A stretch of 63,432 bases of DNA, filler included, from Dimargaris cristalligena (taxonomy: Eukaryota): NCBI GenBank assembly GCA_003614675.1. It is 5 parts of 5 records of this genome, joined end to end, with 100 filler letters (N's around TTAATTAATTAA, not from the genome) between each part and the next. Parts side by side here need not be neighbours in the genome. Positions count along the whole stretch, not along the records: positions 25,489 to 38,093 come from ML003036.1; 4 more parts are not named here. One strand, written 5' to 3'. Below, piece by piece: positions 14,507 through 38,747 of the stretch (within the stretch, counting starts at the first letter, position 1; each line of letters begins with the position of its first letter). A program made the translations under genes and the position numbers. The notes below the pieces were generated by a model. The model saw nothing but the letters and a program-made list of their open reading frames with translations. It was not told the origin of the DNA and ran no database searches.

Positions 14507-17500
14507 GTCCCCTTAGAATAGCCTTATGGAATGCCTGCTCCCTCTCCACAGTTAAAGCCCAGGATACCCTCCACCACACCTCCCTCTTTGACATAATCTT
14601 TATTACTGAAACTTGGCTTCTACCCCCTAAACACCTACACACCCCATGGACCCAATACCACTAATATGGTCTACCTACCTCCAACTAGCAGCTTGGTCAT
14701 ATGGGTTTTTGTGCCCTTGTCAATCCCTCACTTAATATCCCTATTATTAACCTCAACCTTACCTCCCCTCTCTGCCTCTGCCTTTCCCTTGGCTCTTTCC
14801 AAATTATATGCGTCTATATCCCCCCCTTCTCCCATCCAAGACATTTATTTCTACCCTATTCTCCCTTCCCCTTACCCCAAATACTATTCTCTGTGGGGAC
14901 TTTAACTCCCAGCATAAACAACTTACTAGGGACCACTGCCAAAATACCCTTGGTATAGCCCTCCATGAATAGATTACCACTACTACCCTGGAAGGCCTAC
15001 CCAGACCAGTACCATTGACCTGTTTATATGTAATTTTGAACTGACTCTACTTCCTTAAATATCCATAAGGGCTTAACACTTGACTCTGACCATGCTATTT
15101 TGATCCTTATTTTTTCCCCTCCCCCCTTCTCTATTCCTCCCCCCCTACTAGTACCCCTCACAAATGGCACCTTCATAGACTTGCAAATGAGAAACACTGC
15201 CTCCACTATATCTTCTCTTTTACCATGGTCAGCACCCCTCCTGAATCAGCTACTATCCCTAATTACTAACCCCCCACCCCTAGCCCCTGATATCCACCAG
15301 CTCACTCTTATACTCAATAGTTGTATTTATTCTGCATTAGATAGCTCAGTTGGCCATTGGGGGCCACATATACCCTTTTCTAAGCCCTGGTGGACACCCC
15401 ACCTTACCTCTGCTATACAACTTTGGGACCACCTCTATAAGCAGTGGCACTGGGCTAGCGGTATTAACATAATAGTTAAATGGGCCACATACTAATTGGC
15501 ACAAAGAAAATTTCATAATGCTGTTTACTCCCATCAGCAGCTGTCCTGGCATCAATTCTGTACCTCCCTTGAAAAAACCCCCCAGTCAGCTATCTCCTAT
15601 ACCAGCTGCCTGAATTGCTATCACCAAGCACAGCCCTCATTCACCCATCAGGATGGCCCTCTAACTACCACCAATGTTATGGCTGCCCATTTAGCCCAGA
15701 CATATGATGTGAAATACCTCCCTTCCCCCTGTCCCCCTCCTATCCCATCCAGTGATACTCCATATATACTACCTAATTCACACCTATTACCATTGGCTGT
15801 GGAAGACAATATCTGCTGCCTACCCTATAGGAAGGCCCCTGGTCCTAACCATATTAAGGCTGAAATGCTTTGGTCAATTACCAGCCCTCTCTCACTTATC
15901 CTCTCTGCTATTTTCAGCCTCTGCTGGTAGTGGGCCTATACCTCCCCTCTCTGGAAAACAGCTCATGTTTTCCCCATCTTTAAAAATGGTGATAGGTCTA
16001 ATCCAGCCAATTATCGGCCAATCTCCCTTACATCACACCTCTGAAAATTATTTGAATACTGCCTAACCTCCTTTCTTAATATATTTACACCACCTCTGGA
16101 TCCTGCCCAAGGTGGTTTTTAGCCCCAATGGGGTGTACTTGACCAGGCACTATGCCTCCATGAGCTTATACAGGCTCACTACAATACCCATCACCATTTT
16201 CCTACTATTGCATTCCTTGATATTAAGGCAGCCTATGATACAGTAGACTACTCAATAATTTGGGAGGCTATCTCTAGTGTATCCCTGACCCCTGGATTTC
16301 TCCCCTTACTATCTTATATCTTTGATGATATATTTATATCAGTCTCTCTTCAATGCTTGATTTCAGAGCCTTTCAGGCCAAAAACAGGGGTCCTACAGGG
16401 CTCAGTTCTGAGCCCCCAACTTTATTCAATCTTTATTAATAGCCTACCCATCCTTCTTTGGCAGGCTGCACACCCATTTACACCCTCTATCCCCCCCCAT
16501 AGTGGGTATAATCCCCACCCTCTAGCTATTAATTCACTACTCTATGTGGACAATGTTACCATTTTTGGCTCTCCCAATGATGTTGCTAATATGCTGGCCC
16601 TTGCTGAGAGGTACTCAATCATATACAGATACCACTGGAGCCCCTCTAAATGTGTACCCCTCACCACAAACCAGTGGCTCCACTTTAAGCAGTATGGAAC
16701 CCCTCTGACCCATTAAGAGGATTTTCCTTATTTGGGTATCCCATTTACATAAAAGGGGGTATCTCCTCCCCTTCTCCTGGCCCACACTACCAGCTGTGCA
16801 TACAACTGCATAAGGCTGCTTGCAGCTATGGGCTTGAAAAAGTCTGGCTTTAATACTACTCTATGTCTGCACCTATACACTTCTCTTATGCACCCTATTT
16901 TTGAGTATGGTATAGCCATATGCTCCCTTAATATTACCCAGACAAAAGCTCTAGAAAAAGCCCAAAACATCTGCCTGTGGCAGATTATTAGTGGCCAGGA
17001 TAGAACATCTACCCATATCCTCCACCATATTTATGGCTTTCCATCAATGGCCCACTGGGCCCAGGTTCTCACTGCCAAATACTGACATTGGGTGGCCCTT
17101 TTACCATAGGATAGCCTCCTCACACTCCTCCAGCCAATCCTCCACAAATCCTACCTTTTATCCACCCTCTGCCAATCCTCCCTCTTCCTCTCTATCCCCC
17201 CATCCCCCTCTAATACTGATATCAGAGATGCCATACTGAATACCCGCCTTACTGAAGTTGATTTGCTACAAAGTACTCAGGCCCTCATGAAAGGCTGCTA
17301 CCAATTTATTGGCAAAGACCCTATCACTTACCTGCCTGCCACTAGCACTGAATGCCACCATCTGATTTTCTGGTGTATGGGGTGGTTACCAGGTCACTAT
17401 GAGGATTGCCCATGTGGCATTGGCCACACATCCCAAAATCACCTCCCAAAATGCCCCCTCATCCCCTGCCTGCTATTTGCTGCACTACCATCCCCCACAA

Positions 17501-17658
17501 TAGATACTAACCCTATTGATTTTGCCATCTCCTCCCTGCCAACATCCCCCCGCTACCCCTGTTGCTTTTGGGTCCCCCTCCTTAAAATACTATTGTATAT
17601 TGCCTGTATATGTTGCCTTGATATCATACTTCCCCCAGAGGACTCAGGCTCAATTTAG
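14503..17658 (+). pseudogene. LINE ORF2 remnant: AP endonuclease + reverse transcriptase
   Basis: APE motifs LWNA, ITETW, GDFN, SDH. RT motifs KAPGPN, NYRPISL, QGGF, FLDIKAAYD, GVLQGSVLSP, YVDNV (from YADDV), YLGIPF. C-terminal Cys/His cluster CPCG...HLPKC. Confidence 0.92.
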
Positions 17659-18944
17659 TCTACTACCACTGCAGTTAACCCTCCAGTCATATAGTTCTGA
17701 GCTATAGCTCCACCCCCCCTTTTTTTTCTCTCCTTTTTTTTCTTTTCCTTTTACTATGGCTCAAATTTGATAGTCACTGGTAGGCAAAGTGTGGATAGAG
17801 TAATGTGGCAATCTGTGGCAATATCCCTTTAAAAGTAACCCCTGGATGTCCACCTCTATTTCACCACTGACCCTGCCACCCCCCTCTGTTAAAGTTTTAC
17901 TGCAAGGTCCTGCTACTAAGTAGTAGTGGCCAATGCTTTCTTTTATTTGATTCCCCCAGGGTGGGGATTTAAAATGCCATATAGGTGTTACTCCTTGCAA
18001 CCCTGTATAAATAAATCCCTATTATTCTTCTGACATATGGTCACAACTGGAAAATTTTAAAAGAATTGGATTTTATCAGTTATTTTTATAATTTGATTTG
18101 TTTGACATTTAGTGATACTGATTCACTGTATAGGTCAGTTAGAATTCCAGTGGGTAGCCCAGATATGCCCTACATTTAGGAGCGACAGCTAGTTTGCCCT
18201 ATATTACCAGTCGAGGTGCACTAATGGTAAAAAATAAATGTATACGTCCTTCACATAGATACTATATTTCACCATTACTGAATGTCACTAGCAGCATCCT
18301 TCGATTTAGCCATATTCCAACTGAGTAATTAATTGGACTGGTTAATAAGGGAATACGAGTATAGTTCAACAATACTGGGTTGCAACACTATTGATATTTT
18401 TGAGGGAATGTCGATTGGCTTTTGAACTTTTATCAGATGAGCCCAATTCAGCACACCAATTTATCGCTATTTAACTGGGATGGATTTCCCCTTATCTGCA
18501 GAGGGTCTAATATCGACCGGTAAAGAAGATGGGCCCAGTATATTGGCCATATTCCTGGCCTGTGGTGATAGAGAATATATCACAGTGACCGGCTGGTTGA
18601 CCTTTAAGATATCCTCATCTCTTCTCACCTTGGGCTGCGACAACACCTTTCACTGAGGGTGCATTATTATATTGGCGCTCGAAATATGCACACGGGGGAA
18701 AGGGCTTATTCCCACTGATAGTGAATGGGAAGAGGGAATCACTATGGCGTTCGCTGCTTGTGTGGGCTAGGTTAACCGAGTATTTTCACAGATGCAGTCA
18801 CGTCGCTATGCTTAACTTTCTTGGTCTCAATCGCAGCTTTCGCTCTTATTACATTCAATCCCAAGTTCAAACATTTCTCGGCAGCTCTCTTCCTATTTTC
18901 TTTTCTATTTTCCTCCAAGTACTCTAATCTCTCCCAAGCTCACC

Positions 18945-20078
18945 ATGGCATCCGCAGTTCGTAAAGCGCTGAACATTGCCCTTGTTCAAATGAAAGTAAC
19001 GGCCAATAAGGCGACTAATTTGCAAGTTGCTCGGGAGAAAGTCCTGGCAGCCGGCCAAAATGGAGCCGATGTGGTCGTATTGCCTGTAAGCTACCTTTTA
19101 CGGCATATTATTTAGCTCTCGTAGGGTGAAAACCCGGTCTTCTAAGCAGACCCGAATTCCCGGTATACCTGCTTTCGAAAACTCGACGCCCTCTACCCTT
19201 TTGTCTAACCTTAGGTGATACTTGTAGCCCTCTTCTCGCCCCTTAACTAACAATTATAAATCGTATTCGATCATTGTACTGGATAAATTTGTACTGTCCC
19301 CATTCAGGAATGTTTCAACTCCCCCTACGGAGTTCAGCATTTTGAGCAATACGCTGAGCCCATCGAGGGCACCGCCCCTGGTGAGAGTATCCGGGCCCTT
19401 TCGGCCATGGCTAAAGACGCCCAAGTCTATCTCGTCGGCGGTACTATTCCCGAGGTTGTAGTGAAAGAAGGGGGCGCGGATTCGCCATCCCAGCCCCAAC
19501 GCCAACTCTACAATACGTGTCCCATCTTCAACCGGGCCGGCCACCTACTTGCCACCCACCGCAAAGTGCACCTGTTCGACATTGACGTGCCCGGCAAAAT
19601 GACGTTCCGAGAAAGCTCGGTTCTGCACGCCGGCAACCATTTGACCCAATTCACCACCGAATGGGGTCCCATCGGGGTCGGTATTTGCTACGACCTGCGT
19701 TTCCCGGAGATGGCCATGATTGCGGCCCGTCGGGGCTGCATCGCCATGATTTACCCGGCCGCGTTCAACATTACCACAGGCCCTGTGTTCTTTGAACTTT
19801 TGCAGCGGGCCCGGGCCGTTGATAACCTTTTTTTCGTAGCCACTTGTTCGCCCGCCCGGGCCGACCCCGAGGCGATTCGAAATGAAGGAGTCTATCCCGC
19901 TTGGGGCCACTCGTCCGTCGTTGGTCCGGTAGGCGAGGTGATTGCAACTTGCGATCACGAAGATACCACTGTGGTGGCTCAATTGGATCTGGATAGATTG
20001 GACGAGGCCCGTCGGTTCTATCCTATTTATCAGCAGCGCCGGTTTGACTTGTACCCTGATGTGGCCCAGGGGCTCTAG
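18945..20078 (+). CDS. NIT3: Omega-amidase, carbon-nitrogen hydrolase family (Nit2/Nit3-like). Exons 18945-19085 and 19308-20078
   Basis: Catalytic E-K-C triad in VVLP|ECFNSPYG, HRKVHLFDIDVPG and GICYDLRFPE. Also AFNITTGP and WGHS. Phase-0 GTAAGC...CAG intron. Confidence 0.93.
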
Positions 20079-20810
20079 TCAGGCACCGGAAACTCCATGC
20101 GGCTGCATCGCCTACACTTAATCCAAATGTTCTGCTAGCATATATTGCAGTCTGAGCCTAGGGGTTGGAATAAATAAAATCCCCTCAAGCATTTGTAAAC
20201 AATAGAATCCGAGCAACTCCCTTACGACTAAGTAAATGGGGATGGGGTGGTCACGGTTTAGGGCGATTGGGGGTATACATTGGAGCACGGGGTATTGGCC
20301 ACTGTAATCCAATTGAGGATGTTTTCATACTATGTTGTTTAATTGAAGGATTGAGTGGGCGGAAATCGGTAGATAGTTAAAGGAAAAAGATACACCCGAG
20401 TTTGATAGGTTCTTTGACACATAGTTGCATTACATAAATGGATCGGGGCGCCAGAGAAGGCTAGGGGCTGAAAAGCGACGAGATGGTTCCAATTAGTATA
20501 CAGAAAAAAAGGTATTGACGAAGGTAGATAATACAGCGTAGAGAAATAGAGACGGGGAAATGGGGGAGGTGTGTAAAGAATCATTCATCCGTAAGAGCAA
20601 AAACAATATGTAGGGATAAAACAATAGGAAGACTTGATCGTTTCCTTAACTCAGGCCAAGTCGGGGTGATGGAGATTGAGCTGCCATATACAGTACTGCA
20701 AGCGGTTGCGGCGTATGGCAATTATAATAAAAACGCACAGAAACTAGAATAGTACCCAATGGCCGTTGGGCCCATTGGGAACAGTGACGTAGTCTAGGCG
20801 CAGATGGGTT

Positions 20811-22043
20811 CTATTCGCTGACTTCATCCGAAGTGTCAGCTGGTTTGCCAAAGGGTGGGGGAACCACGCCGTTGTAGACGAAAGTCCCGTATATGAGAAT
20901 GGCGAAGCCAGCGACCTGCAAGAGCTGGAAATGTTCCCAACCGAGGGAAACACTAGCCATCCAGATGAACAGGGTGCGGCAGGTATCGATGGTGGAGCGG
21001 GAGGTGGCGCTGAGGGAGCGGGTGACGGACAAGCCAAACCAGTTGAAGAAGGCGATGGAGAACATAATGGCAATGGAGGTAGTCCAAACGCCAGAGTTAT
21101 CGACAATTTGGTGGAAGCCGTCGTACATGTCGAAGTAGCCGCCCGGGTGCGTGCGGCCAATGACCCCATGCAGAAGTGGGATGCCCATGGCTACGGTACC
21201 TAAGCCGAAAATACCTTCCAGGCCCACCGCCCGCATGGGCACCACATGGAACTTGTGCATAATTTTCTCTTCCACCACGAACTGGGCGGCGGTGAAAATC
21301 TGGGCCATCAACACCATACCCACTCCGAGCAGGGACCGTTCCGAAAATTCCACCCCGGCTACTGTGATACCAATCGGGTCGGCGGCGTTGGGAACAGGGG
21401 CCGGCTGGTACGGGAAAAGCACACTGCTCATCCCCACCGTACCCACCCCAATCATAATAAGCAGTAGCGAACCCCACTGGAAGGACTGGAGCCGGTGTTT
21501 CAGGAAAATAACGGAGAAGATGCCCGAGAAAATCACCACGGCACCGCGCAGCATCTGGTAAACGGAAGCGGAAGTGTAGAACAGGCCCACGTTCATGAGG
21601 GTGGTGCCACAGATATCGAAGGCGGCCGGAAGCCACATGAGGAGGGTGCGGAGCCCGGTGAGCGGGCGGGTGTCGGCCAGCGTGGCTGGGAGAGCGTCGG
21701 GGTTACCGGCCATGGCCAGAACGCCCGCTTCGCCCCCAATGATATCTTCGATATCGTCGCCATCGCCCGGGGCCGCGGCCGTCAGCAGCTCCTGGTAACC
21801 TTGGCGCTTCCGGCGGTAATTGGTCCAGAAGATGTTGAGGTAAAACACGATAAGACAGAGGGTTTCGCCAGCGAACATGTTGAGGGTCTGCCAAGTGGGC
21901 TGCTCAAACAGCTGGCGCCGGCTGGGGTCGGGGTCCTCGCAGTTGCCCACGCACTCCATATCCTGCAACTTAGTCAGCAGGGTGTTGAGGGTGCCAGTGA
22001 CCAGCATGCCACTCACCAAAACCACGGTTTGCGACGTTTTCAT
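20811..22043 (-). CDS. SLC35F6-like drug/metabolite (nucleotide-sugar transporter superfamily) membrane protein, 410 aa
   Basis: About 10 hydrophobic segments. Motifs MLVTGTLNTL, FEQPTWQTLNMFAGE, PAAFDICGTTLMNVGL, ASVYQMLRG, QFVVEEK, VGLEGIFG, SIAFFNWFGLSVT..LSATSRSTIDTCRT. Confidence 0.92.
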   Translation of the reverse strand: MKTSQTVVLVSGMLVTGTLNTLLTKLQDMECVGNCEDPDPSRRQLFEQPTWQTLNMFAGETLCLIVFYLNIFWTNYRRKRQGYQELLTAAAPGDGDDIEDIIGGEAGVLAMAGNPDALPATLADTRPLTGLRTLLMWLPAAFDICGTTLMNVGLFYTSASVYQMLRGAVVIFSGIFSVIFLKHRLQSFQWGSLLLIMIGVGTVGMSSVLFPYQPAPVPNAADPIGITVAGVEFSERSLLGVGMVLMAQIFTAAQFVVEEKIMHKFHVVPMRAVGLEGIFGLGTVAMGIPLLHGVIGRTHPGGYFDMYDGFHQIVDNSGVWTTSIAIMFSIAFFNWFGLSVTRSLSATSRSTIDTCRTLFIWMASVSLGWEHFQLLQVAGFAILIYGTFVYNGVVPPPFGKPADTSDEVSE

Positions 22044-25000
22044 GACGTCGGCCTATGGGGTTGAGGAAGGAGGCGGGGAGGGTCTCGGGATTAGGTTGGC
22101 AGGGGCAATGTGCTGTAGACGACCGGATACGTAGGCGTCAAGTCAAATACGGGTGGTGAAATAAGGGGTAAATATAGCGGCAATGGAGTACTGTAATGGG
22201 GGCTGGCGGAGGGAAGAGATAATAGAAACGGGGAGGGGGAATGCGTCGCTGGAATATAAAGAACAAGAGGACAAAAGGGTACAGAGATATATGCAGTGTA
22301 TTGTAGCGGGGGATTAAAGACGGATAAGCGGGGGAGAGGATACCAACCTGCCAGGGTGCTAGTATAATCATCACAACTAAGGGAGAGGGGGGGGATAGGG
22401 CCAATGTGGCTGGCGAGCCCAGGCTGGTCGGACACGGGGCTCCTCAGGGCCTCTTGTGTAGCCAATAGCCATCTGCTAATAAGGCCAATGACTCCCCTTC
22501 ACCCATACCATTCACTCGGCGCCTCCCGTTCTTTTCTCCGTCAGCTAGGTCACGCGGACCTGGTCACCAGTCACAGAAGAGATAGATGGTGAATTAGGTG
22601 GCAAGGCGAATACACGGGCCCTTGGGACAATCTTCCCATTAGTACTATGGAACCTTGTCAGCCTGGAATGGCGGACCACCCACCCTGCTCATACCACAGT
22701 CATCGATAACGAACAGTCGCTTGAACCCCCCCCACCCAATACACACCAGCCTAGTGACAAGGGGCACCCGTCGCATCATCAGCCGAGTAAAACCACCATT
22801 GCACTGAGTGGTATAGGGGTCAGCTGACCCTATTCTAGGCTGTTGAACTTGTGAAGGGGCGGTGTGGTGGGCTCTGCTTTCCCACCATAGATGGGCCAGA
22901 TTACCCGACCAGTTCCCGCTGCACGTAGCAATTATACCCAAGGGCTTGATGCAAAAGGCGGGAAAAGTAGGACCATCCTGTCGATCTGACCCCGTGTGCT
23001 ACCCTTTACCTTAATCCACGGCCACCGTTGTTCACTTCCGGCGGTTTGGCTAAAATTCGGCCCTTAAGGGCATAATTAAAGGACATCCCTTTGGAACGCA
23101 TTAAAGTTGCACCAGAGTGTGGCAGACATTCCAGGTAGTTGTTAGGAGGGTTGCTAAATAAGACACCCGGTTGCTATTAAGGCTGGGCCAGCATATACTT
23201 AGTCACCAGTAAAAGCTCGAAATGTGCCATTTGTGACTATTCTAGATTTTCCGCAATGGCTATACCATAACCCACCCTGTGGGCATACTCAAGTAGGCGG
23301 ATAATTGGGCTGAATGAATATACCACTGTAGTGCTGTATGTAACCATGCTGGATTAATCTATTTTACACACTTCACAGTATATTAATTTCTTGGTGAAAT
23401 GCCACGTTCCGGTATATACAACTAATCAGAAACCTAGGGATACTACTGCTTATAAGCCGCCTTGACGTTCCAATAAAAAGAGGCCATTCGTTGCGTTTAT
23501 TTACAGATGATACACTAAATAAACTAAAAAAAGGTATTCCAACTCGCAAGCGAAGTGTACAGGCATGGGCTGTAGGTCTATTTTCACAGGCGCGCCCAAA
23601 AGTGCGACACAGTGCGTTGAACAATTCTTGAAAGCTACGGATGCGTTGTATTTACAAGGTCTACTTGAGTGTATCCTCTGTTATATCACTGGGACATATG
23701 GATTTCGGACCTTTCCTCTAGTAACCGTTATTCGATGCGGATGGCTGAAACCAATCCTAGGCTGAACTGGTGAATGTTCAGTTGAGTGGTGTAAAAAGCC
23801 ACAGGTTGAAAAATGAACTATCTGGCCCCTATACCACCCAGGAACGAGACTATCATTGCCATTAGGAGTTGGAATCGTCGTCGGAATTGTTGTCCGCCAA
23901 ATCGGGGCAGACAGCGGCGGTGTAAACATCGGGCAAGGGCATAAACATTTTAGGCGAGTCTGAAACCTTTAGATGAAAATAATGAGAAAGATGGATATTG
24001 TAAGGCAATTTTGGATATGGGAATGTGAATAGGGATGCAAATGGAGCCAATTGAGTTGTGATATGGTTTTTGAAGTCGACGGAGCAGCGCTGGCTTCTTA
24101 TATACCCCAAACCTTGGCGACTCTACCAATTTATCTATTTAATAACTGACAGCATCAATACGCAAACGAGGAAGGTGGTGTGCTGTCGAGTTATCCACCG
24201 TAAAAAAATACAGATTCTAAATTGCAAAGTAAATTATTTTGACAAGAGGATCTTGTTGGCGAGTACTTTAACCTGCAGCCATAACATATCTTAACCGTTA
24301 CCCAAAATAGTTTGAAATTACGATAAAATCTGTCACACTACCCTATATTACCAATTAGGCGGATGACAGAGTTGTTGGTGCACAGTTACTAGACCTCATG
24401 GTTTAACGAGACAGTTTCTTTCGCAACATCAATTGATTCCGCGAACATGTTAGAATCCGATGTTCTCGCCAATAACTTTCTGGTTGTGATGTACTCTTGG
24501 GCGGATTGTTTAGGCTATTCTCTATTTCAACACCCGTTCTCGATAGTAGAGATCGCGATTAACGATCAGGCCGCTACGGTTTGGATTCGATGGACATAGT
24601 CACAATCCCGGAACTGGGTTCACGATCAATCTAAGATCACATGGAATGCTTTGATGACTGTAGACTACCTCGTACGGTCATTTTAAATGATGGCTTTTAT
24701 TCGCATTAAAAATGGTTCCCTTTTGCGGCGCCACCTCGAATTCGACCGATTGAATTTATACAATCAACAAGATCGAATCACAGCCATTCTGTATTCGACT
24801 TTCCCAGCGAACACTATTCAATTTAGACCCTGATCTACATCTTCACTTTGTCTTGGCGACTAACTTAAATTGAAGTGGGACATATATTGTCCGAATCACC
24901 TCGGGGACTTCCCCAAAAGTTGATCTCATACACAAGAGTTAAGCTGCAGAGTGTAGTGTTGTGGTCGCAATTAATACCACAAGGTAATATGGCCTAATAA

Positions 25001-25490
25001 CCTTATCAGGGCCAACTGGAGCAGCCTCAGTCTAGTGGGAAAAACTAACTAACTAAGGGAAACACGCACTCAGCGGGGACAATTCTTATCTGATCTTCAG
25101 ATAGGGACAATTAGGGCAACCGGGGATCACACAGGGATCCTTCTAATGTATGGCAGATAAGGCACAGTGAATGGGCTTGGGCCAAATGGACGATAGGAAT
25201 AGAACAAGACCGGTGGATCGAAAATAACTGACTGGTAAACTTATACTTGGTGTCAAAAAACTGCCTATTTATTAGGAGAATACCTGATGGGTATTTATAT
25301 GAAAATGTAATAAAAAAGGCCACCAATGTTGGTGGCTCTGAGAGTACTAAGTCTGGGGATATGCCCCAGACTCCTATAACTAAATGATNNNNNNNNNNNN
25401 NNNNNNNNNNNNNNNNNNNNNNNNNNNNNNNNTTAATTAATTAANNNNNNNNNNNNNNNNNNNNNNNNNNNNNNNNNNNNNNNNNNNNCC

Positions 25491-26273
25491 TATCCCCACC
25501 GCCGTGCCTCGGGCGGCGATGGCGGTGACGGTGGCAATGGTGGTAATGGCGGTAACAGCAACGGCCGTGGTAACGGAGGCGACGGTGGTGATGGTGGTAA
25601 CGGCGGTAATGGCGGCAATAGCTTTAACCGTGCCTCTGGTGGCAATGGCGGCGACGGTGGTAATGGTGGTAATGGTGGCAATAGCAACGGCCGCGGTAAT
25701 GGAGGTGACGGTGGTGATGGTGGTAACGGTGGTAATGGAGGTAATAGCTTCAACCGTGCCTCTGGCGGCAACGGCGGTGACGGTGGTAATGGTGGTAATG
25801 GCGGTAACAGCAATGGTCGGGGAAATGGCGGTGACGGCGGTGATGGCGGCAATGGTGGTAATGGTGGAAACAGCTTTAACCGCGCCTCTGGTGGCAACGG
25901 TGGTGACGGTGGTAACGGCGGCAATGGTGGCAATAGCAACGGCCGCGGTAACGGAGGCGACGGTGGTGATGGCGGTAACGGTGGTAATGGTGGCAACAAC
26001 TTTGGTCGTCGCGACGGTGGAAACGGTGGTGACGGTGGTAATGGCGGCAATGGCGGCAATAGCAACGGCCGCGGTAACGGGGGGGACGGTGGTGACGGTG
26101 GCAATGGTGGCAACGGAGGCAATAGCTTCGGCCGCAGCTCTGGCGGTGACGGTGGCGACGGTGGCAACGGCGGTAATGGCGGTAATGGCGGCAATAGCAA
26201 TGGCCGTGGTAACGGTGGTGATGGTGGTGACGGCGGTAATGGCGGCAACGGTGGAAACAGTTTCCGTCGCTAA
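25491..26273 (+). CDS. Gly/Asn/Asp-rich tandem-repeat protein, 5'-truncated by the gap (260 aa visible)
   Basis: Open frame from the gap to TAA at 26271-26273: YPHRRAS, then 12 blocks of (GGD/GGN)5 (one has 6 triplets) separated by SNGRGN / SFNRAS-type linkers, ending SFRR. Variation falls mostly at third codon positions of this frame. Confidence 0.85.
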
Positions 26274-28687
26274 ACTTTCAGCCAAAGGCCTCCCACTACC
26301 CATCGACAGCTCACTCCCCCCTTATGTGCGACATGCCGGGCCTAGTACTGTATTTGACCATGTACAGCATTTTGGTGTCGACCCCTTCAAAACCTTCGGC
26401 CCGTTTTCACTGGGTTTGTCCAGAAACCATCTGTACCGGTTTGTTGATACCCCAGTTCCCATCCGCCAGTTTTAATGAGACACTACTCTTTTATGTATAT
26501 ACCGCGTGTAAGACTTATTTCCCTCTGGTCAATCTAGGTCACTCTGAAATGGTTTTACTTTCTAATCCGGCCTGATTGACTGCTGGCCTTCTTTGGTTTT
26601 ACGCCATAGTCTATTTATCCTCCGCGACCTTACCCTTTATATAACCCTGCTTCGCCTTTTCCAGCGCTGTATAACCTTATATATTTCAGATTTTTATATA
26701 TTTACACATGTTTTTTTTCTTGGTCAACGACTGGACCATACAATCTTAAAACCCCTAAAAATTAGAAAAGCCCAATAAATCCAAAAATATCATGAGCTTT
26801 ATCGATTTCCAGCCTTCCCTTATACTGCATCTCAAGACAATGTATTTTGATTTTTTTAATTATTTTTTTTAATTGTGGTCAGTACGGGTCGTTTCTATTT
26901 TCTTAGGCTATAGATGTACATGTGTATGTTTTCAGCCCGCCCTCAGAGTAGCACGTTAATAGTTAATGGAATGGGTAAGTCGAGCCTTTTAAACCCGGGG
27001 CTGGGAGCGTGACAAATCGCATAGATTTGTTTGAACGTCGCCACCCTTTAATAAATACGGTTTTTATTAAGACTAAGAATTAATCTAAAATTAATAATGG
27101 AGGTTAAAAAGACCCCACTGATAGGCAACACTATAATACCCACGACTGATTCTGGAATATTCCAGTTACAATAAGAACACTATAATGCCTACTTAATTAA
27201 CACAACTACTAGATAAAATCTATAGCTGCCGCTGCCAAGCTGAGCGGGTGGGTTGCCTTTAGATTGGGCGAGGCACGCGCGTTTAAACCAGTATGGTGGG
27301 TGTGTGGGGCGGTGGAGAATAGCACCTTTGAATTACGGTGGACGATAGTGTGAATAGGTTACGTAGGGGCCCCGGGCTGCGCAGTGAAGACTACACGGCC
27401 GAATAGGGAACGGATGAATGGAAGAGGAGATGGCTGCTGCGTCCAGCCAACCATCGACTGCCACCTTGGCCGAGGGGGTCTATAATAGTTTATCCACTTG
27501 TCCGATTGTTTTAGGATTGGCTGGGGTTGGGACTGGTGGTTGGCTGTGCTGCCCAGGGAGCGCTAAATGAATCATGGTCAATAAACCATGCGCACATATC
27601 TATAGGTAGGTTGTATTAGTATCATTTATATTAGTTGCTGTGAGAGAGTAGCAGGATTTATTTATACCTAGACTTACTTGCCAAGACATTAGGGATAGCA
27701 TCCGCAGTGTCTCCCATTTGTATGTCATTTGGCCTGCCCTACTAGAATGGAGGAGAGTAACGAAGGGATTGGGAGAGAGGGCCACATGATCCAAGAATCC
27801 TCTGGCCTTCCCGTCTCTCTTCAACGGCCCTCCCGCTGTAACCAGGGCCCAGCCCATCGCCGAATAACCAATGGTGGGCCCCGGCCCCCTTTTTATCGAA
27901 GGCCGCGTTAATGAGGGGGGCTTACTCGACTCGTTTTGTTCACCACCACCACACTAGCAAAACAGCTGCTAATTCATACTGCCAAGCTATCCTATAAAGG
28001 CAGGTAGGTATGTGCGGCCGAATGGGCTATTCGTTGCGTTGTGTGCATGCGTCCTTTGGCTCATTCTCCACCTTTTAATAATAACCTCCTAGTAATTTAC
28101 GACAACTTGGACAGAAGGCTCTCGGACTCCTCCTCCTTCGAAACCGGCTGTGCCTTCTTTAATCCTTTTATATTTCGTATCTTCATTCTGGGCTGTTATT
28201 ATTATTCGATTTTCTCCAGGTGACCTCGAATACACACCGCTTCAGCTTACCCTTCTGGGCTACAACCGCCGGTGGTCTGCCCACTTGGGCTGCAGGTATT
28301 CTATATAGCTAGCTGCAGGCTATACTTACTTACTTACCTATAATAATACCCCTCTTCCCCTGCTACGCTTCTTTCGCCCAAGCCACAACGACTCTCCCAC
28401 TTCAAGCGCCGCACAGTCCACCCGTTAGCATTGGTGCCACTCTTTCATTCGCCAATCCTATCGCCACATACATCTCCTCCTTCCTTGTCAACAACCCGTT
28501 TCCCATACTTTTTTTCTTGCTAATTTCGTTCAAAGGTCTGGGTGCTACCTGCGTAGAATACTCCGTCCGTTACCTCAGTTTCGTTGGAATTGCTCCATTC
28601 CTCTGAACGGTACTTGCTGCCGTTTGAGAAGCGCTGTGTAGGTGTTATCGAGAGCTACTTGCCATTGGGGTGAATACAAGTCGTCTT

Positions 28688-31600
28688 ATGGACAACTCCG
28701 CTTCACCCAGCCTCTCACCCGATTACCGCCCTCCAGTTGATTTGCCCACCAACAAACCCAGTCCCATGGCCGGTCCTTCTCCACTCGCTTCGACCGCGAC
28801 TGATACCAACCATAACCCAAATAAACCTCTGGTCCCCTTTTACGGTAAGCTCCCTGGTAAAATACCTCCTCTATGAAGTGGTCTGTCGACGCCCTAAGTT
28901 CCGCCCATAGTCAGCCTGGCCCCTTCTGCTCTGCCGGTATCTTAGCCATGAAACGCCCCCCAATCCCCCTAACCATTTCTTTGCTATTTCTATATTCGCC
29001 CCTTAATCACATTGGTCCATTAGGTGCTCCGCATAAGCCCCCGGGCAGCGCCCCGTTCGATGTTCAATCACGAATCAAGCCGGCCCAAGAGCAGGGCCGC
29101 ATCCTGCTGGTGTCCCTCCTGGAGAACTTCTGCATGCTGTACGATCAGAGCCCGCGGCGTAACCGTGAACTATTTTTCATGATTTGCAAGACCCTGTATT
29201 CAATGGGAATCATTGAAGAGGACTACATTGATGAAATGGCCGCCGTGCGCAGTTCCTACATGCACGCCTTTCGCGAATTAGTGCTCCAGGCCATGCGTAG
29301 TATCGACCAGCAAAATAAATTGGATGAATCCCAGTTCTTTTCTCGGTTATCGTCCGCGGATAGCCGGGATGCCCCGTCCGGCGCTGGTGACTTAAGTGCG
29401 TCCCCCCCGAATTCGGCGGTGCCGCTCCGTCGTCCCTCCGATTCCGACAAGGTCGCGGATCCTTTTGCATTCCCGGGTGACCGAGTCACTTCGGGGTCGT
29501 CAAGTAGCACCAATACGCCGATTTCAGGGTCCCGCCGCCCCTCTTGTGCTGGTCCGAATAGCCTTATTCTGTTCAACCGACAGGGTATACCCATTCCGAA
29601 TTCCTCCGACTCCGGACTGCGAAGTTTTTTAGACTACCAGAATAGCCGCTACCGACTCGACTTTATCGAGCTAGAGCGACTAGGTAAAGGTGGTTTCGGT
29701 ACCGTGTATAAGGTAAGTCCCAGGTGGAATCCTCTAGGTTTATCCAGGTAACATCCCCAGTTATAGATATACCCCCCCCCCCATTATCATTCGGTTATTG
29801 CATTTATACACCCATACGGTGTCTTATCCGAAATTATCCCAGACTGATACTCAATTGGTGTATGATAACTGACAATCGCATTCCAGCATTCAATTATTTA
29901 ACCCTATGCCTGTGATCTATTTTCATTTAACCTCCCCCCATCCAGGTAAAAAACCGACTCGATAATCGGGAGTACGCCGTCAAGAAAATCTACCTATTGG
30001 GAGATGATACTCCCCTGGATAAGATCCTTCGCGAGTCCACTAGCCTGGCCCGTCTCGAACACCCCAACATCGTCCGGTATTATTCATCGTGGGTTGAGGT
30101 GGGCCATGCCGACCCGTCTAGCTCGCCAGACGATTCCGGGTTAGACAGTCCATCCGATAGCGACGGCCCCCCAACCCCCACTCCGGACTTCGAGGATTTT
30201 CACCTTAACCAGTCCTTCAGCCGCGACTCCCTTTGGAATGAGTCCCCTTCGTTCGCCGAAGAAGCCGACCCAGTGGTGGTCCGCCAAGCCTCTTACCCCA
30301 AGAATAGCAGCCTGTGTGTCAACGGGTTTGATATTCCCGGTGATGTAAGTGCCCGTTTCTCAACTCTCTCCCGGGCCGGTAGTCAGCAGTCCGCAAATCC
30401 CTCGAACCAAAGTGGTCGCCATCGGCGCCATCGTCGTCGTCGTCGCCGCCACCATCGCGACAGCCATGATCACGACGACAACCGGACCCGTCGCGAAAGC
30501 ATAAATGGTGGTGGTGGTAGCTGCAGTCACCACCCATTGTCCAAGTCTAACCCGCTAACTCATGGGCGGGCCCAATTTTCGTTTGATATCAGTGAAGGGT
30601 CGGCCAGTGACCGGGGGAACCTAAGTGATGGGGATAATTATGACGACGATTCCCTGTCCATCGCATCGGATTCCACCGACGGCATTGATTTCGCCTCCAC
30701 CTCCCACCCCACTTCCCCGGATAAGGCATCTTTCGCGGAGCCCGCCAGCCGACGCCGTAGCACTGGCCCTCCCCCGGCCATTAATATGCCTAATCCCCCC
30801 CGGCGGACGCATACCCGGTCGGATAGCCTGGGGATACCCCCCCACACGTCGGGTTCGGTAGGTGATGGCCTCCTCCCCCCTCTAGAATCGTCGAGTATAG
30901 GTTCCTTCTCATCCAGCGTTCCCCGCTTTAGTCGACTGTCCGTACCCTCGCCTGCTCAGGGCCCTCAAGGCCAATCCGCGAATCGCAATTGTGTCCGCTC
31001 TACCCTAACGCTGCATATTCAAATGCAGCTATGTTCGACGAACCTCGCCGAGTTTCTCAAACGGCGTAACGAGCGCCTGGCGGATCGTTTTCCCGGGGCT
31101 TCCGTGGATGAACTCTTGGCCCAAATCGATACCGTAGGCGTACTCAAATTATTCAAAGGTATCGTAGAGGGAGTAGCCTACCTACATACGCACCACATGA
31201 TCCACCGGGACCTCAAACCCTCTAATATATTTTTGGACGTTTCCCGGTTCGCCGTGCCCTACGGACCCGCCCAGCCGCCCCCGGCCTCGGCCTCGGCCGC
31301 TCATTTGGCGTCGCCTCTCCTAGTTCCGATTAACCAGTGGACCGACGATATGGACGAAGCCAAGTGTACCCCACGCATCGGTGATTTTGGCCTAGTGACC
31401 ACTGCCGAAGCGGCCATTCTCGAACACCATTCGCAGTCGTACCCCGACGATACCGGGTCCCTATCCGCCGGGTCCTTCCTGGAAAACTACCTAAGTACCT
31501 CGGCCAGCGGTCCCCATGCCCACCCCCTTCTATCTAACCAGCCATCCCGACAGACGGGTCCGTCGTCAACGCGCCGTCGTAGAGCATCCCGGGCCGGAAT

Positions 31601-32066
31601 GCTGGGAGGCCCAACCCCCATGACCTCCGGGGTAGGCACCGTTACGTACGCGGCCCCGGAACAGCTCGACGGCATTACCGCCCACTATGACACCAAGGCC
31701 GATATTTTCAGCCTCGGTATCATTTTGTTTGAGCTCCTCTACCCCTTTTCAACGGGTATGGAACGAGTCGTCATTTTAGATAACCTACGGCGCGGTACCC
31801 TGCCCGAACGATTTGTCACCCTGCGGCCCGTGGAAGCCTCCTTCATTCTATGGTTAATGGCAACCCAACCCGAACAGCGACCCACGGCCGAGGAAATCCT
31901 GGCTTTCCAGTTATTTGATACCGCCGAAGCGATGGAGATTAAACTGAAGAAGGAAATCCAACAGCATATTAGGGAAAAGGCCCAGATGCAAACCCATATT
32001 GAGCAATTGCAGGCGCAGGTGGAGGATTTACAAAGTCGTTTAGGAATGACGAACCTCCGTCATTGA
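28688..32066 (+). CDS. eIF2-alpha kinase, HRI-like. Exons 28688-28844, 29024-29712, 29946-32066
   Basis: HRI-type N-terminal LLVSLLENFC helix. SRYRLDFIELERLGKGGFGTVYK|VKNRLDNREYAVKKI, LARLEHPNIVRYYSSWVE, long kinase insert, LHIQMQLC, IHRDLKPSN, IGDFGL, TSGVGTVTYAAPEQ, PFSTGMER, C-terminal coiled coil. Confidence 0.92.
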
Positions 32067-35000
32067 GGAGGGCTGCGTCCGGCGATGTTTTTTTATTTAT
32101 TTAAGCGACTTATTTATATATGGGTGCGGTGTAAGTATTATATATATATATAATTATGTCAAAAAATAATAATTAGTGGGTGGTTTTATAATTTACATAA
32201 TTTTACATTTTAATCAAGGATTTGACTGAGGTATTCTAACCCTCTCGAATATTACTTGATCCTTTTACTCATCGCATACCCGAAACCACCCAACAAAGAT
32301 ACCCCTCCTGCTTACTCGTCCTTTTCTTGTTTCACTTCGCGCCATTCTCTATAACACGACATCCACTGTCGACTGGTAGGACCAATGGTGCTGTAATTTT
32401 ACGTTAATCATTGTGGGGGCATTTATAGCGTTAAGTTATTTTAATGGTGGACGTACCTTACTCTTAAGCAATGCATACCAATACAATAAAGATTTAATAT
32501 TCCCCTTCCCTGTGTTGTTGCTCCGCTTGGGGCATAGGAAACTTTGGATATGGCCCCCATGACTTAGGAGAGGTATTCCAGGCATAAATATTATATAATT
32601 AAGGCTACAGGCTAGAACTCGGGATGTTCATTGGCTAGCCATGACGTAGTTTTATATAACCCCAGTCCGTGGGATCTACAAGACTATAAGCAGAGCAGTA
32701 TAGGTTAGCTTTCAATAGGGATGCAGATAATAGTTTTCCATGTCGGCCCAATGACGTTTAAATGTGGTACAGAATGCCATACGGAAGGATAAATTGAAGT
32801 ACACTTATCGTTATTGGAAACCTTGGAGGGAGACGCAATATGGGCACAATAGGTAATATGCAAGTGAATTAAGGCTTTTAAGGCGACGTATTGGCTGGAG
32901 ATTGTGAAGCTAGGGAGTCAACGACCCTATAACTTCTTTTCTTCTGCCAGTAAACTCTCCGTGCCAGTAAATTGCCCGAATATTAGGCGGATTCTGGACA
33001 ACTGGCCGTTCGCTAGTCGGTGATGTATTGGCATGGGAGAAAAGGCAAGCAACGTCTAGGGGAACCAATGTCTGTATTGAATGATTGTCGAAGACTGGTC
33101 AAGTGTTCCCAAATACCACGGACTGAAGTCACTGTGAGAGGGTGTGTTTAGAGTGAGACTTTTATTCATGTATTTCAAAACAGTGGTTTTTAATAGGCCC
33201 CAAGCAACTGGCTTTTATTTATACAGTGACTGTGGATGATTCTCGCGACTTCACTGGAGAGAAAAAACAACGCCAGTAGTAGCTGTGGCGCTACTTAAGT
33301 TACCGCTAAAAATGCTATTATCCCTCGGATAATGCCAGGTTGAAACCGAACGAGAATTTGGGCATCTAGAGGTGGGGTAGTCCATGTTGTTTAGGTGGGT
33401 CATTTATGGTAAATCGTAGTCTTCCGAAAGATAAAAAATGTTGCTAGGAGGTCTTCCGCAACCCAACTTCGACTCTGGCCTTCTCAAAATTGACCAATAT
33501 TTGGCTCTAATCGATATACCATGGTCCGTTAACGCGGTCTGTATTTGCGCTAACCTCAGTTCTAGGAAACCCTAAACAGATAGTTTGTAAACATCTTCAA
33601 CTCAGGGAGGAAATGTATTCCAACTTCATATCCTACAGGTCGCATTTCTATAAATAACAGATTATAGCGCTACCCTAGCCAGAGCGAGCAGCTATTAGTA
33701 CAGGTATTAGAGCACAGCAACCTCAAAATTAACTATAAGCCGGACCTAGCAGGGCTATAAAAATGTATTAAGTTTCTGGTGGGTGTGCCAGTGTGCGATA
33801 ATAGTAATTATTGCTGATAAGCTTCCCACCGGCGCGTATGCAAAAATGGCTCTGAAAATTGGTGGTAGGCGTGAATCCTTGCTTGCAACCCCTACAGGAG
33901 AGGAGCTGGTTCTTAGGGTAAGCCTTCCGAGACTGTTTACCAATGTCGGCGCGCGGGAATTCCTGATGGCAAAAATCCTTTCTAAAGAACATTTTGTCAA
34001 GCTATACCTTTCTATGCCAACGCACGACTAATGTTTACTAGAAGATGGTGTAGGCCATTGCAGTATTATGTAGAGTATTTCATGATAAGTCGCCGCCCAA
34101 GTTAATATATCACACTGTATTGTTCGTGTATGAGCCAACACCGTGGGATTCTAAGCTGGATCAGGTGGTACTGCTGGCACTTGTACCATAGGCGCCCTCT
34201 ACCGCACGGAAAATTGGCCCGACTGGCTCGGAGGAATTAATGGATTGGCCCGCGAAGCGCAACTACGTTCAAGGTTGGGATTCTTGTTAGATATGCCGCC
34301 ACCCACACTTTCCTTACTTGTGATATAGTATGCTGTCAGTTATATTCTGTAAAACCGACTACCAAATGGTAAGGCTCCATTTAGCGATGAGGCTCCTCTA
34401 AGGGGCTGGCTTAGGAACATCTGCCAAAAATCACGGTATTTGATCCAGTCCAACTGGCCATGTGATAGCTACCCCGCCTGACTCATGCCACCCCAAATAG
34501 GTTCCACCGGAGCCGTCAGTATCCATCTGGTACTATAGTACGGACCATTGTATGACAACGTAACCACTCATAGAAAGAGATACCGACCAGAAAATTATGG
34601 GTTTTGGGGGATCCCGGGTGTTCGGCTGAATAGTGAGTGCCGTTGGTCCGGAAGGGATTACTATATTCAGCGGGAAATTGCCTAGACCATGGCGCTTGGT
34701 TATCCCTGGCTAATATATTATAGGCTGCAAGGCATCCGTCACTTGAGTTCCCATGGATGGCTTATTTGACATCTATGCTAAAGGGCCGCTATTCTGGGAT
34801 GGGGATATATTGAATCACCATTTCCCTGCCGTAAGCTGCTTCCCTATCGCTAGTCGGGAATTTCTTACTGGCTAGAGAACAGGGTCATATCACCTACACT
34901 GAGTTTAATGGTATTGGCATTGCTAAATAAAATCAATCGATCCCTCTGAACTCTTCTTCCACTCCAGTATTCCATAGCCGATTATTCTTTATTCGCTGCT

Positions 35001-38000
35001 GTCGGGCCAACAGCATGTTGGGAGTTCAGCCCGATTATATTACCTCTAACTGTGAATATGGCCTAGGCAGTAGGATTGAAATAATAATCTCGGACCACAC
35101 CACTGGCTATCCGTGACAGGTGCTTTACATCCATACTTTTTCCTATTGTTTTCCCTGTTGTATTTTAGCTGACCCCCCTAATCATTCCTAAATCTTTGCC
35201 CACATCCTGATGTTAGGTTCTTTAACGAACTTATGCACACATCTATTTGCACCACAGTCCTAGCCTGCCATTTCCTTTCTACCCCTTAGTTGCTTGCGAT
35301 TATTCTGGTGCTGGCCTATTGTACCTTTCCCATCGATAAATGCCCCGCATTAGTTAATCTTAGTAAGTTAAGTGCACCTAGTATGCGACGTAATTCTCTC
35401 GACTCTTTCTTAAACTCAATGTCGGTGGACTCATTGTCACCATGGTATGACATCCTCGGCATAGGTTGCCCCTACATAACGAATCCCTCACTCACTTATT
35501 CCGCACTCCTTTGGTTAAGAGTCAGTCAAGACACCCTAACCTAAAGTTATTTTCAACAGATGTTTACTTAACCCGTACAGCAAATTTATTGACTATATTG
35601 CAATGAGAAAAATAAATAAAAACAGTCTGTAAAATCCGCCGAAAAATTATTGTGGGTCTATTCGTAGTTGAGGTCCTTAGTGGTGTGAGAAAAGTAGGGA
35701 GTGCCCTTTCATTCATCTTCATAAAATAATCAGTTGCGATGCTTTATACTGGCAGGTCATACGGCCATAACATTTGGGCGCGGGTAATAGGAATGGTCGC
35801 GGTTACTCCTTGGGTCGAATTGTCCAATTTTCAGTGTATAACAGTGCCGTCAAATTGAATGCCTTGCATAATCTGTAGGCTGTTCTCGGGTGCCCCAATC
35901 AGGGTCACTGGTGTGGTTAACCTATCGATAATGCCTATTCTACTACTATGAACCAGCTAAGCTGGGTTTCTGGCCTACCGTCATTGTAATCCTTTGAACT
36001 GGCTGACCTTGAATATGCTTGCCCGCTTAATAACGAAGACTGTCGGATCGCTTAAGCCAGCCGGTGGGATGGTGGCAAAAGCTGGTTACAAGGTGCCGTC
36101 TGGTTCCGATAAGGCTGCCAAGTAAGTGGCATTGGTGTATTGTCCATTATTAGCCACGCCAGCACAGCATGTGGGCAATCCAATCAGCCGGTTCCAATGA
36201 CCGCGTGGGTTCATATATAGGGAACTAAGGCGGGCATTAAATGCCAATATAGAGAGGCGCCTAGGTGCGTGAGGTGGAATCCTTTTATTTTGGCGAGGTG
36301 GTGGTTATATAATCAATGGGCGCATTATAGGGGCCCTATCTCCGTCCATGCAAGAAGAGTAAAAATAGCCAATTTATTTACCCTTTTACCAAGGTTTGGT
36401 GGTCAATCCAGGTGAATTTTCGGTGTCTATCATATCGACATATTTTTTTTCGCACTCTATGCCACACTGTATACTGGTGAAATTTGAGTAGACGAAACAT
36501 AAGGTATTGTGTTATTGGTTGTCTATGGGGGATGCTCTGTGGGCAGTGTTAAATAAGTCTTGTGTGATCGCGGCGGGGGTCAGCCAATGTCGTCGATTTT
36601 CCGAGGCGGGGTGATGCAACGCGATCGCAGCCCGTCTGGGAAGTCATGTCAATACAGACACCGGCAGTGGGTGGGAACGCCAAGTTGGCCATGGTCGGCG
36701 GTATCAGGTATTGCTCGGCCGCCATACTTCGGGCCGGCTGACATTAATGTTGGAGAAGTAGATTGGCTTTGGCCACTGGATGGGGGAGTCGGTGACTGTG
36801 TTGGTGGTGGTATTACAGCTCGCGGGTCCACTACGGATATACGCGAGAGCAATGCCTACAGCTCATTACGAATATTTCTTACCATTACCGGCTGCTCCAT
36901 TGCTATTTAGAATGTTAGGGTGCCACTGGGAACGGCCATTCAAATCACATCGGGGTAAGCCTATAGAGACGAGTATGGGCGTGGTGGTGGTCTAATCAGC
37001 GCTCCCGACTTTCCCACCCCACTCTGACATCAGCCATTCGAAAGAAAGGGATTTTAAGCTGGATCGGCCCAGCGTGGCAGGTCAACGAGGTGGGGGGAAT
37101 GATGAAACCCGGCCATTACCAATCCGCTGCAATGACGAGCACCGCGGAGTGGGGCATGCATGCGACTATGCAAGCCGTGCGCGGGGATACCAACCTCATC
37201 TTTCGGGGTTGGGGACTGTGCAGTTGGGCCGGCTACTTTGTCTAGCAACGGCCCACTTTGGCCAACGCCTCCCTCTCTAGCTCAGCAGGGATGGGGAAGG
37301 GGCGTCATAGTAGAGAGCAGCAGGGTCCATAATGACGCGCTTCCGTGGTCATGGCTAGTAGGGGCCACCATGGGTACTATTAAAGAACAGGTGCCAAGAA
37401 CGGGGGAGAGGGGGCAAATATGGATCGGGGGGGTTTCAAATTACACGCCGATTCACTTGGCCGGTCCCGTCTCTTTGGGTTGACCGATCACTTTAAAATA
37501 GGCCGTCGTCGCGGCGCTGGGCGACCCCCAACACTAACTATCGTTTGGGCTTTTTCTTACTAGCCATTAATTTGTGCTCCCAATCCCAGTCCCTTCTCAG
37601 GTATATATATTTTACACTTGGTCTAATCAGCTCAGGGAATTGCGGCTGATCCTTCGGCCCACTATTAGTCTCAGTTAAACTCGCCATTGTGCTTTGGGCC
37701 AAGCTTCGTCTGTATAATTCGACACCCGCGACAGCGTCCGCTGTACAGCCATAGTCTGTCTGACGATTTCCACTGTCGCCTTCCAGCGGAAAGCCACCTC
37801 CCCCTGCTGGCCGGCTCCCCCGTTCACACTCCTCTTCCCCTTGGTAAGGTGGTTTGGACCGGCTGCTGACTCTGAGCCCCCCCCCAACTCGGACTCTCCC
37901 CCCTATAACTATCCCCCTCCTTCCACTCCCTTTAATCCCTTTCTCCCTAATAGTGTTACCTCTATACCTTTAGTTCTAGTCTCCTCTATTCTTCCAGTGC

Positions 38001-38747
38001 CTTCTTTTATATATTTCATTTTCTACACGACTCCGTTGTCTTCAACTGCCTGTCCTCGCTGGTTCTCGTATTCCCCGCCCGACTCCGACCTTANNNNNNN
38101 NNNNNNNNNNNNNNNNNNNNNNNNNNNNNNNNNNNNNTTAATTAATTAANNNNNNNNNNNNNNNNNNNNNNNNNNNNNNNNNNNNNNNNNNNNGAGAGGC
38201 TGTTCTTCAGGATGGTTGATGCTATACACCCTTCTGGTAAATTAGGGGTCAAGTGTGCCAACTGTGCTGCCATAGGCAGTTGGGCAGAGGCTATATAAGC
38301 ACTAGTACCTGTTACTAATCTAAGAAGTGGCCATACTTTGGATGGATTCAAGATCCCTGGATGATTGATAAGTCATTTCCATGGGAACAGTCCAGGGCTG
38401 AGAGAGTTATTTTATTTCCTTATACTTGCTGATTCTCTTTTCCTTCAGCTTTCCAAATCATACTTCCATTTATTAGAAATATAAATATGATAGTAAATAC
38501 AAGTACCTTCAATTGCAACTATAAAGATTTTAAAGAAGAGAGAAAGAACCACAAGGGGCAAGGCTAGATGCCCACAGTTAGTTTTATTGAATTAGATAAT
38601 AGCAGTAATAATGATTAGGACAAAGTCCCAGGTATAGAATGATATAGTAACAGCTAGAATATAGTCCTGAGTATAGAACAATCCAATCACAGAGATGGAA
38701 TCAGTGGGACAGGGGAATGAATTTCCAACACCATTTACTTTTCCATC

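Follow-up and report, generated by a model that had tools for sequence, protein, structure and literature searches.

Natural glycine-rich bundles of polyproline II (PPII) or polyglycine II (PGII) helices have been recognised in only a few unrelated proteins, namely the springtail antifreezes, Obg, the tips of phage fibres, ALK/LTK and, as models, the PGRS domains, and protein design takes an interest in them as a third kind of building block. The PGRS regions of PE_PGRS proteins consist of GGX blocks, GGN and GGD among them, joined by short turns (PMC9436101, PMC13243192), and the sandwiches modelled for them possess a single straight edge, made up of short and regular Phe/Trp-rich loops, as well as negatively charged faces (PMC9436101). 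In the springtail (Collembola) antifreeze proteins, such as sfAFP, G-X-X/GGX helices and short loops build two antiparallel layers, in which each helix runs antiparallel to the next and one face is made up of the even-numbered helices; a 12-helix member of 220 residues has been modelled, and within the accessible text of that paper PPII antifreeze proteins are reported only from Collembola (PMC10235112). Salmonella phage S16 gp38 (PDB 6F45) and the glycine-rich domains of ALK/LTK provide natural PPII bundles in very different proteins, and PPII sheets of two layers, their Gly on the inside, are formed by (Pro-Gly-Gly)n and (Ala-Gly-Gly)n (bioRxiv 10.1101/2023.11.25.568672). The DNA analysed (the window) was a stretch of 63,432 nucleotides (nt) from Dimargaris cristalligena (assembly GCA_003614675.1) composed of five joined pieces, the third of which (25489-38093, from ML003036.1) begins inside a gene, hereafter the repeat gene, for a long array of GGD and GGN triplets. 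On the sequence evidence this gene is real, selected and strikingly regular, and its product resembles the PGRS-type and springtail-type sandwiches in predicted design while belonging to neither family; a two-layer PGII/PPII sandwich is the leading explanation for its fold, with a probability of roughly 0.45.

Translation of the plus-strand frame at 25491-26273 yielded 260 residues and a TAA stop, namely YPHRRAS followed by 12 blocks of GGX triplets in which X is D or N only. Eleven of the 12 blocks hold five triplets, and block 11 (26142-26195) holds six. The six-residue turns between them are of two types, which alternate strictly and without exception: SNGRGN follows blocks 1, 3, 5, 7, 9 and 11, while the turns after the even blocks read SFNRAS (blocks 2, 4 and 6), NFGRRD (block 8) and SFGRSS (block 10), block 12 being followed by SFRR and the stop. 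The X positions read D-D-N-N-N in all even blocks and N-D-N-N-N in the odd blocks, except in blocks 1 and 11, where they read D-D-N-N-N (with one further N in block 11). Tandem Repeats Finder reported 5.8 copies of a 126-nt period (82% matches, score 847) and 11.4 copies of a 63-nt period, with the 126-nt periodicity beginning at 25502. An earlier reading of the same DNA (the first-pass annotation) had described 12 GGD/GGN blocks of five triplets, one of them of six, a 42-residue (126-bp) super-repeat present six times with SNGRGN and aromatic turns in strict alternation, and Asp at the start of each block, Asn at its end and Arg in every turn; translation and repeat scan bore out this description. 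The composition was 136 Gly, 57 Asn, 21 Asp, 17 Ser, 16 Arg and 6 Phe (52% Gly, 22% Asn, 8% Asp and 6% Arg of the 260 residues), with no Cys, four Ala confined to the turns and a single Pro outside the repeats. The CpG observed/expected ratio was 1.33 in the repeat versus 0.53-0.87 in the five pieces, and to this extent the reported retention of CpGs was correct, but much of the high value is explained by the GGC-GGN codon junctions.

Compared with the described systems, the array shares with PGRS regions its GGX blocks and short turns, and the Mycobacterium PGRS-type open reading frame (ORF) L032 has blocks of 4-6 triplets (mostly 5-6), turns mostly of 5-12 residues and 52% Gly, as found here; the aromatic edge and negative faces of the PGRS model would likewise match the Phe turns and the Asp/Asn faces. 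In PGRS, however, X may be A, T, V, I, S, Q and others, whereas it is D or N only in the repeat gene, and block lengths and turns are variable where they are strictly regular here. PE_PGRS proteins are moreover mycobacterial, while the repeat gene lies beside a eukaryotic kinase gene with matching codon usage, and no sequence homology between PE_PGRS and the repeat protein was detectable; in PE_PGRS proteins the Gly-rich domain is preceded by an N-terminal PE domain and a GRPLI linker, and GRPLI was not found in the 260 residues in view, which are the C-terminal part only. Springtail antifreeze proteins have 3-4 triplets per helix, disulfide-forming Cys and an Ala-rich ice-binding face, in contrast to five triplets, no Cys and Ala in the turns. 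The helices of S16 gp38 and ALK/LTK are 4-9 residues long, with pure-Gly runs and interleaved variable loops or domains, and as far as the accessible text describes them they contain no tandem 42-residue repeat (PMC13243192). SsGsr1 of the Sclerotinia sclerotiorum cell wall also has Gly-rich tandem repeats, the copy number of which varies between strains (PMC10269696), whereas in the repeat gene one triplet varies; its repeats are of 11 residues and it has a glycosylphosphatidylinositol (GPI) anchor, as opposed to a 42-residue super-repeat and a C-terminus (GGNSFRR) with no hydrophobic GPI-attachment signal. Plant GGX-rich proteins have long GGX arrays as well, but these are described without a fixed-length block-and-turn design in the accessible part of PMC13243192. 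A collagen-like repeat (G-X-Y with frequent Pro) was ruled out by the position and scarcity of Pro.

Openness was no guide to coding, since only one frame in six is interrupted across the repeat, and the frame was judged from the variation between repeat units and from codon usage. Among five complete 126-nt units (42 columns per codon position), the variable columns numbered 4, 4 and 34 at codon positions 1, 2 and 3, respectively (binomial p 3e-10), and identity between units was 82.2% for DNA and 94.0% for protein. In the GGX frame, 173 codon differences between units were synonymous and 25 non-synonymous (proportions of differing synonymous and non-synonymous sites, pS and pN, of 0.58 and 0.043), while four other frames were ruled out, as nearly every unit difference would be non-synonymous in them. 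The antisense frame with PPLPPS motifs and the GGX frame share their wobble base pairs, so that synonymous scrambling cannot pick the strand, and a proline-rich protein encoded on the minus strand (26269 down to 25490) could draw on 259 open codons and on 155 synonymous versus 32 non-synonymous differences (ratio of non-synonymous to synonymous divergence, dN/dS, 0.072). Codon usage separated the two: when seven ORFs of the window with Pfam support supplied the reference table, the GGX frame scored +49.1 bits (0.19 per codon, with reference genes at 0.10-0.26) and the antisense frame -109.6 bits, below every antisense frame of the reference genes, and with the linked kinase gene as sole reference the scores were +57.5 and -102.5 bits. 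The minus-strand frame would encode its 136 Pro with 69 CCA, 59 CCG and 3 CCC (CCC 48% in known genes) and 53 of 65 Leu with TTA/TTG (25% in known genes), has no ATG, opens right after a stop at 26270-26272 and would suffer Leu-to-Phe changes wherever GGA or GGG precedes AAY, all of which renders it scarcely credible; the GGX frame on the plus strand is the coding frame. The earlier argument that synonymous scrambling points to selection on the protein thus held for the scrambling itself, with the choice of strand needing codon usage, and the claim of a plus-strand coding repeat selected for its amino acid sequence was supported by both lines of evidence. The stretch was also contained in five public runs from two studies (27-34 million letters of assembled contigs, guessed to be DNA), four of which were compared (X1, X3, X4 and X5; X1 and X3 are the same sample, and X5 is from the second study). 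All four single-letter variants listed inside the ORF (25544, 25694, 26060 and 26204; contig depth 5.2 for 25694) fall on third codon positions. X5 lacks 9 nt at 26169, exactly one GGN triplet of block 11, on a 729-nt contig bridging 26087-26821 into the unique 3' flank, so that all 12 blocks are of five triplets in this isolate; a contig of X1 covers 26087-27500, from the repeat end to the 3' flank, with no differences. A non-coding minisatellite or the remnant of a dead gene would account for the lack of a start codon in view and of any homologue found, but is very improbable given the concentration of unit differences at codon position 3, between-strain variants that are all third-position with an in-frame indel, gene-like codon usage and a stop placed exactly at the end of the array. 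It is accordingly highly likely that the GGX frame belongs to a real coding gene. The D/N pattern (NDNNN or DDNNN) is kept in 10 of the 12 blocks, D and N being one transition apart, and since this pattern, the block length and the turns are retained while synonymous sites are near saturation, selection is register-specific: the repeats are under strong purifying selection at single-residue resolution, which acts on the Asp/Asn positions, the five-triplet length and the alternation of turns. As far as sequence can tell, such constraint marks a defined repeating structure and not a disordered region held to its composition only.

The five pieces of the window (12.5-12.7 kb) are tied by four identical artificial joins of 100 nt (44 N + TTAATTAATTAA + 44 N; Table 1), and features said to enter a 'gap' are in fact cut at a piece boundary. 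The first-pass annotation had placed the start of the gene in a gap at 25389-25488 to be closed; this stretch is the artificial join ahead of piece 3 and is not closable within the window. The gene is probably eukaryotic, protein-coding and on the plus strand, with its C-terminal repeat domain in piece 3 and a non-repetitive N-terminal part outside the piece. Contigs of 823 nt (X1 and X3) and 1,698 nt (X4) cover 25489-25589 and run, unbroken, 722 and 1,597 nt further upstream, respectively. Because short-word contigs break at repeats, the upstream part is probably non-repetitive, and together with the onset of the 126-nt periodicity at 25502 this makes it probable that the array in view is complete.

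In the proposed two-layer sandwich, each 15-residue (X-Gly-Gly)5 segment would form a left-handed PGII/PPII helix ~46 A long at 3.1 A per residue, consecutive helices would run antiparallel, and the odd and even helices would supply one layer each of a flat 6+6 sandwich. With a helix spacing of ~5 A, the particle is estimated to measure roughly 46 x 30 x 10 A. The SNGRGN turns would then all lie along one edge and the Phe/Arg turns along the other, as an aromatic stripe, with the glycines pointing inward, both faces presenting ordered Asn arrays crossed by Asp stripes, and the Arg of every turn placed beside the Asp at the helix starts. In keeping with the rule for such sandwiches, the array consists of 12 blocks of (GGX)5 (or 6), has turns of six residues and repeats with a period of two blocks. 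If rigid, flat and polar, a lattice of this kind could serve at the surface or outside the cell, either structurally or by binding another lattice (carbohydrate, mineral/Ca2+ or ice); this is our best guess at the function, speculative and in our estimate rather unlikely. The earlier idea of a secreted protein that binds ice or Ca2+ is unsupported by the sequence in view. Several observations weigh against the sandwich fold. The first-pass annotation had regarded a disordered prediction as telling against its proposal, and formally AlphaFold2, run with no alignment and no positive control, returned one, with a mean predicted local distance difference test score (pLDDT) of 36.2 and a predicted template modelling score (pTM) of 0.13 for the 260-residue domain, and a pLDDT of 37.3 and a pTM of 0.12 for three super-repeats (126 residues); lacking alignment and control, this low confidence is weak evidence, and the block-and-turn design fits the published sandwich rules. 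Furthermore, the domain has no Cys and hence no disulfides, and five triplets per helix are more than the 3-4 of springtail antifreeze proteins and small PGRS sandwiches. Helices are also shorter (4-11 residues) in the natural bundles tabulated in the accessible part of PMC13243192, and in the same source stable bundles of plant GGX-rich proteins found no support from molecular dynamics, so that GGX richness alone guarantees no fold. The N-terminal part of the gene, the start codon and any signal peptide lie upstream of 25489, outside piece 3; a PDB sequence search gave no match at an expectation value (E) of up to 10, and protein, metagenome and prokaryote-genome searches found no homologue that would back conservation beyond the species. 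A complex prediction of the two domain halves (score 0.20, mark 0.34) carries no weight either way. The more far-reaching proposition, that of a first PGII sandwich from a fungus, or small-genome eukaryotic microbe, built as a two-layer bundle of 12 helices close to the ideal, whose helices (15 residues) would be the longest known for the fold, with pure Asn/Asp faces and one aromatic edge, of an origin independent of the springtail, phage, kinase and mycobacterial examples, with a paralogous Gly-rich family and lattice-binding to ice, mineral or polysaccharide, is doubtful when taken as a whole.

The same gene, read in the same frame, might instead encode an intrinsically disordered or fibrous Gly-rich product, a flexible matrix, hydrogel or condensate like the glycine-rich cell-wall proteins of class I in plants, and this is a serious possibility although not one that we favour. 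Both AlphaFold2 runs were of uniformly low confidence, Gly and Asn make up an extreme share of the composition, the nearest ESM Atlas neighbours are Gly-rich bacterial clusters that match in composition only, and simulated plant GGX-rich proteins adopted PPII only transiently (PMC13243192). What speaks against disorder is that block length, turn type and the choice of D or N are fixed per position while synonymous sites are near saturation (pS and pN as given above). Disordered low-complexity regions usually keep their composition, not their register, and an up-down hairpin array would be expected to show such a 42-residue, two-unit periodicity. If Ca2+ were bound by an RTX-type beta-roll or beta-helix in place of PGII helices, the GGDGGD at the start of the even blocks would fit the motif GGxGxD; the RTX nonapeptide GGxGxDxUx, however, has a large hydrophobic residue at position 8, where every block has Gly, and this, with the absence of a Pfam match (in a scan that was also blind to Gly-rich control ORFs), leaves such a fold very unlikely. 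Little more can be said for a secreted precursor of Gly-rich repeat peptides cut by Kex2 at RR. Pairs of Arg occur at PHRR/AS, where the first-pass annotation had suspected a Kex2 site, at NFGRR/D and in the C-terminal SFRR, but repeat-peptide precursors have a processing site after each unit, and the dibasic sites occupy only 3 of the 13 turn positions at uneven spacing (after 0, 8 and 12 blocks), the remaining Phe turns having a single Arg; the suspected site is unsupported, and processing of this kind is improbable.

Should the two-layer PGII sandwich be correct, the repeat protein would be a naturally idealised form of 12 helices, each face with a single residue type, and thereby a ready-made model for fold stability, and it would extend the polyglycine-II fold to a new kingdom. 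Should the product be disordered instead, the single-residue conservation would imply an unusual register-specific selection on low-complexity sequence. Literature searches found no description of a fungal PGII bundle, and fungi are not mentioned in the accessible text of PMC13243192.

All homology searches were handicapped by low complexity (the repeat is masked by BLASTP), and the status of the repeat protein as an orphan is thus unproven. No Pfam model, the PGRS model PF21526 included, matched the repeat protein at E up to 10; two Mycobacterium Gly-rich control ORFs of PGRS type (L032, 1-1656 +; L036, 1-2469 +) were equally without a match at this threshold, and for this reason the blank scan carries no weight. 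Word-indexed protein searches gave two weak matches among 8,000 scored at near lengths (E 2.4e-7 and 5.4e-5), both bacterial-looking secreted Gly-rich proteins, and four weak matches among 8,000 scored at longer lengths, and in a full HMMER scan 1.84 billion representatives yielded two matches (E 3.5e-6 and 1.1e-4). One candidate homologue, P0004, with a signal peptide, four-triplet GGX blocks and SNGPGN and SF turns, was rejected because its Gly-rich part is not conserved, its two relatives sharing only a C-terminal Cys-containing domain. The neighbours in the ESM Atlas were unnamed actinobacterial Gly-rich clusters only (0.93, low recognition). A search for related loci in metagenome contigs produced 596 pattern matches, none of which was confirmed, and a back-translated turn-plus-block motif matched neither metagenome contigs nor prokaryote genomes. 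The bare 15-residue block was found, as a single copy per locus, in 37 loci of prokaryotes and two of viruses, within heterogeneous Gly-rich modules and never in such an array; among these loci, the most similar architecture was that of Mycobacterium ORFs of PGRS type. The earlier statement that no characterised fungal family of this design was known agrees with the outcome, as no characterised family was found in the Pfam, protein, HMMER, PDB, metagenome and prokaryote searches.

In the contigs of X1, X3, X4 and X5 covering 25489-26270, loose ends and inserted letters were observed that link the repeat, with the frame kept, to further Gly-rich sequence carrying W, Y, H, S and T (SNGQGN, FGRGD, TTGWGSGSG and GDGYGYGGNG among others). 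From these sequences it seems that several paralogous Gly-rich repeat loci are present in the same genome. The depth of the contig at 25489-25589 relative to that of the 3' flank was 274.7 versus 18.5 in X4, 170.2 versus 40.5 in X3 and 52.1 versus 66.1 in X1, and position 25544 was T in X1 and C in X3, which are the same sample. The discrepancies in depth and at 25544 could be a result of two near-identical copies or alleles, or of a multi-copy upstream sequence.

The genes of the window are eukaryotic and have short introns; the features located in it are collected in Table 1.

Table 1. Features of the repeat gene and of the remainder of the 63,432-nt window.
Feature	Position	Strand	Basis or remark
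Artificial join (first of four)	12679-12778	.	identical to the other three joins
Artificial join between piece 2 and piece 3	25389..25488	.	no assembly gap, and outside the gene; preceding sequence unrelated
Artificial join (third of four)	38094-38193	.	identical to the other three joins
Artificial join (fourth of four)	50786-50885	.	identical to the other three joins
First bases of piece 3, (x)YPHRRAS, in frame with the repeat	25489..25511	+	RAS matches the end of an SFNRAS turn
Repeat domain, 12 GGD/GGN blocks and six-residue turns, six 42-residue super-repeats	25512..26270	+	translation; frame by codon usage
Block 11, the sole six-triplet block	26142..26195	+	translation
TAA stop immediately after GGNSFRR	26271..26273	+	translation; no hydrophobic tail
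Unique 3' flank without long ORF	26274..27500	.	single contigs join flank to repeat in 4/4 runs examined
HRI-type eIF2-alpha kinase gene, at least 2 ORFs, kinase domain with long insert	28861-32066	+	~2.6 kb downstream of the repeat gene
HRI2_3H domain ORF	28861-29748	+	Pfam
Pkinase domain ORF	29931-32063	+	Pfam
Bromodomain protein	1651-5880	-	ordinary eukaryotic housekeeping gene
Reverse-transcriptase fragment (an example, in piece 2)	16123-16713	+	RVT_1, E 1.5e-11
Carbon-nitrogen hydrolase (nitrilase family)	19287-20075	+	ordinary eukaryotic housekeeping gene
EamA/nucleotide-sugar-type transporter	20814-22052	-	ordinary eukaryotic housekeeping gene
Ser/Thr kinase	42060-43973	-	ordinary eukaryotic housekeeping gene
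Rat1/Xrn2-like 5'-3' exonuclease	58243-61260	-	ordinary eukaryotic housekeeping gene
22-nt tandem repeat, ~3 copies, 86-90% matches	62030-62111	.	repeat scan

The reverse-transcriptase region of piece 2 (12779-25388) probably corresponds to the 'dead repeats' mentioned in the first-pass annotation. The CpG observed/expected ratio was lowest in this piece, at 0.53, compared with 0.72-0.87 in the other pieces.

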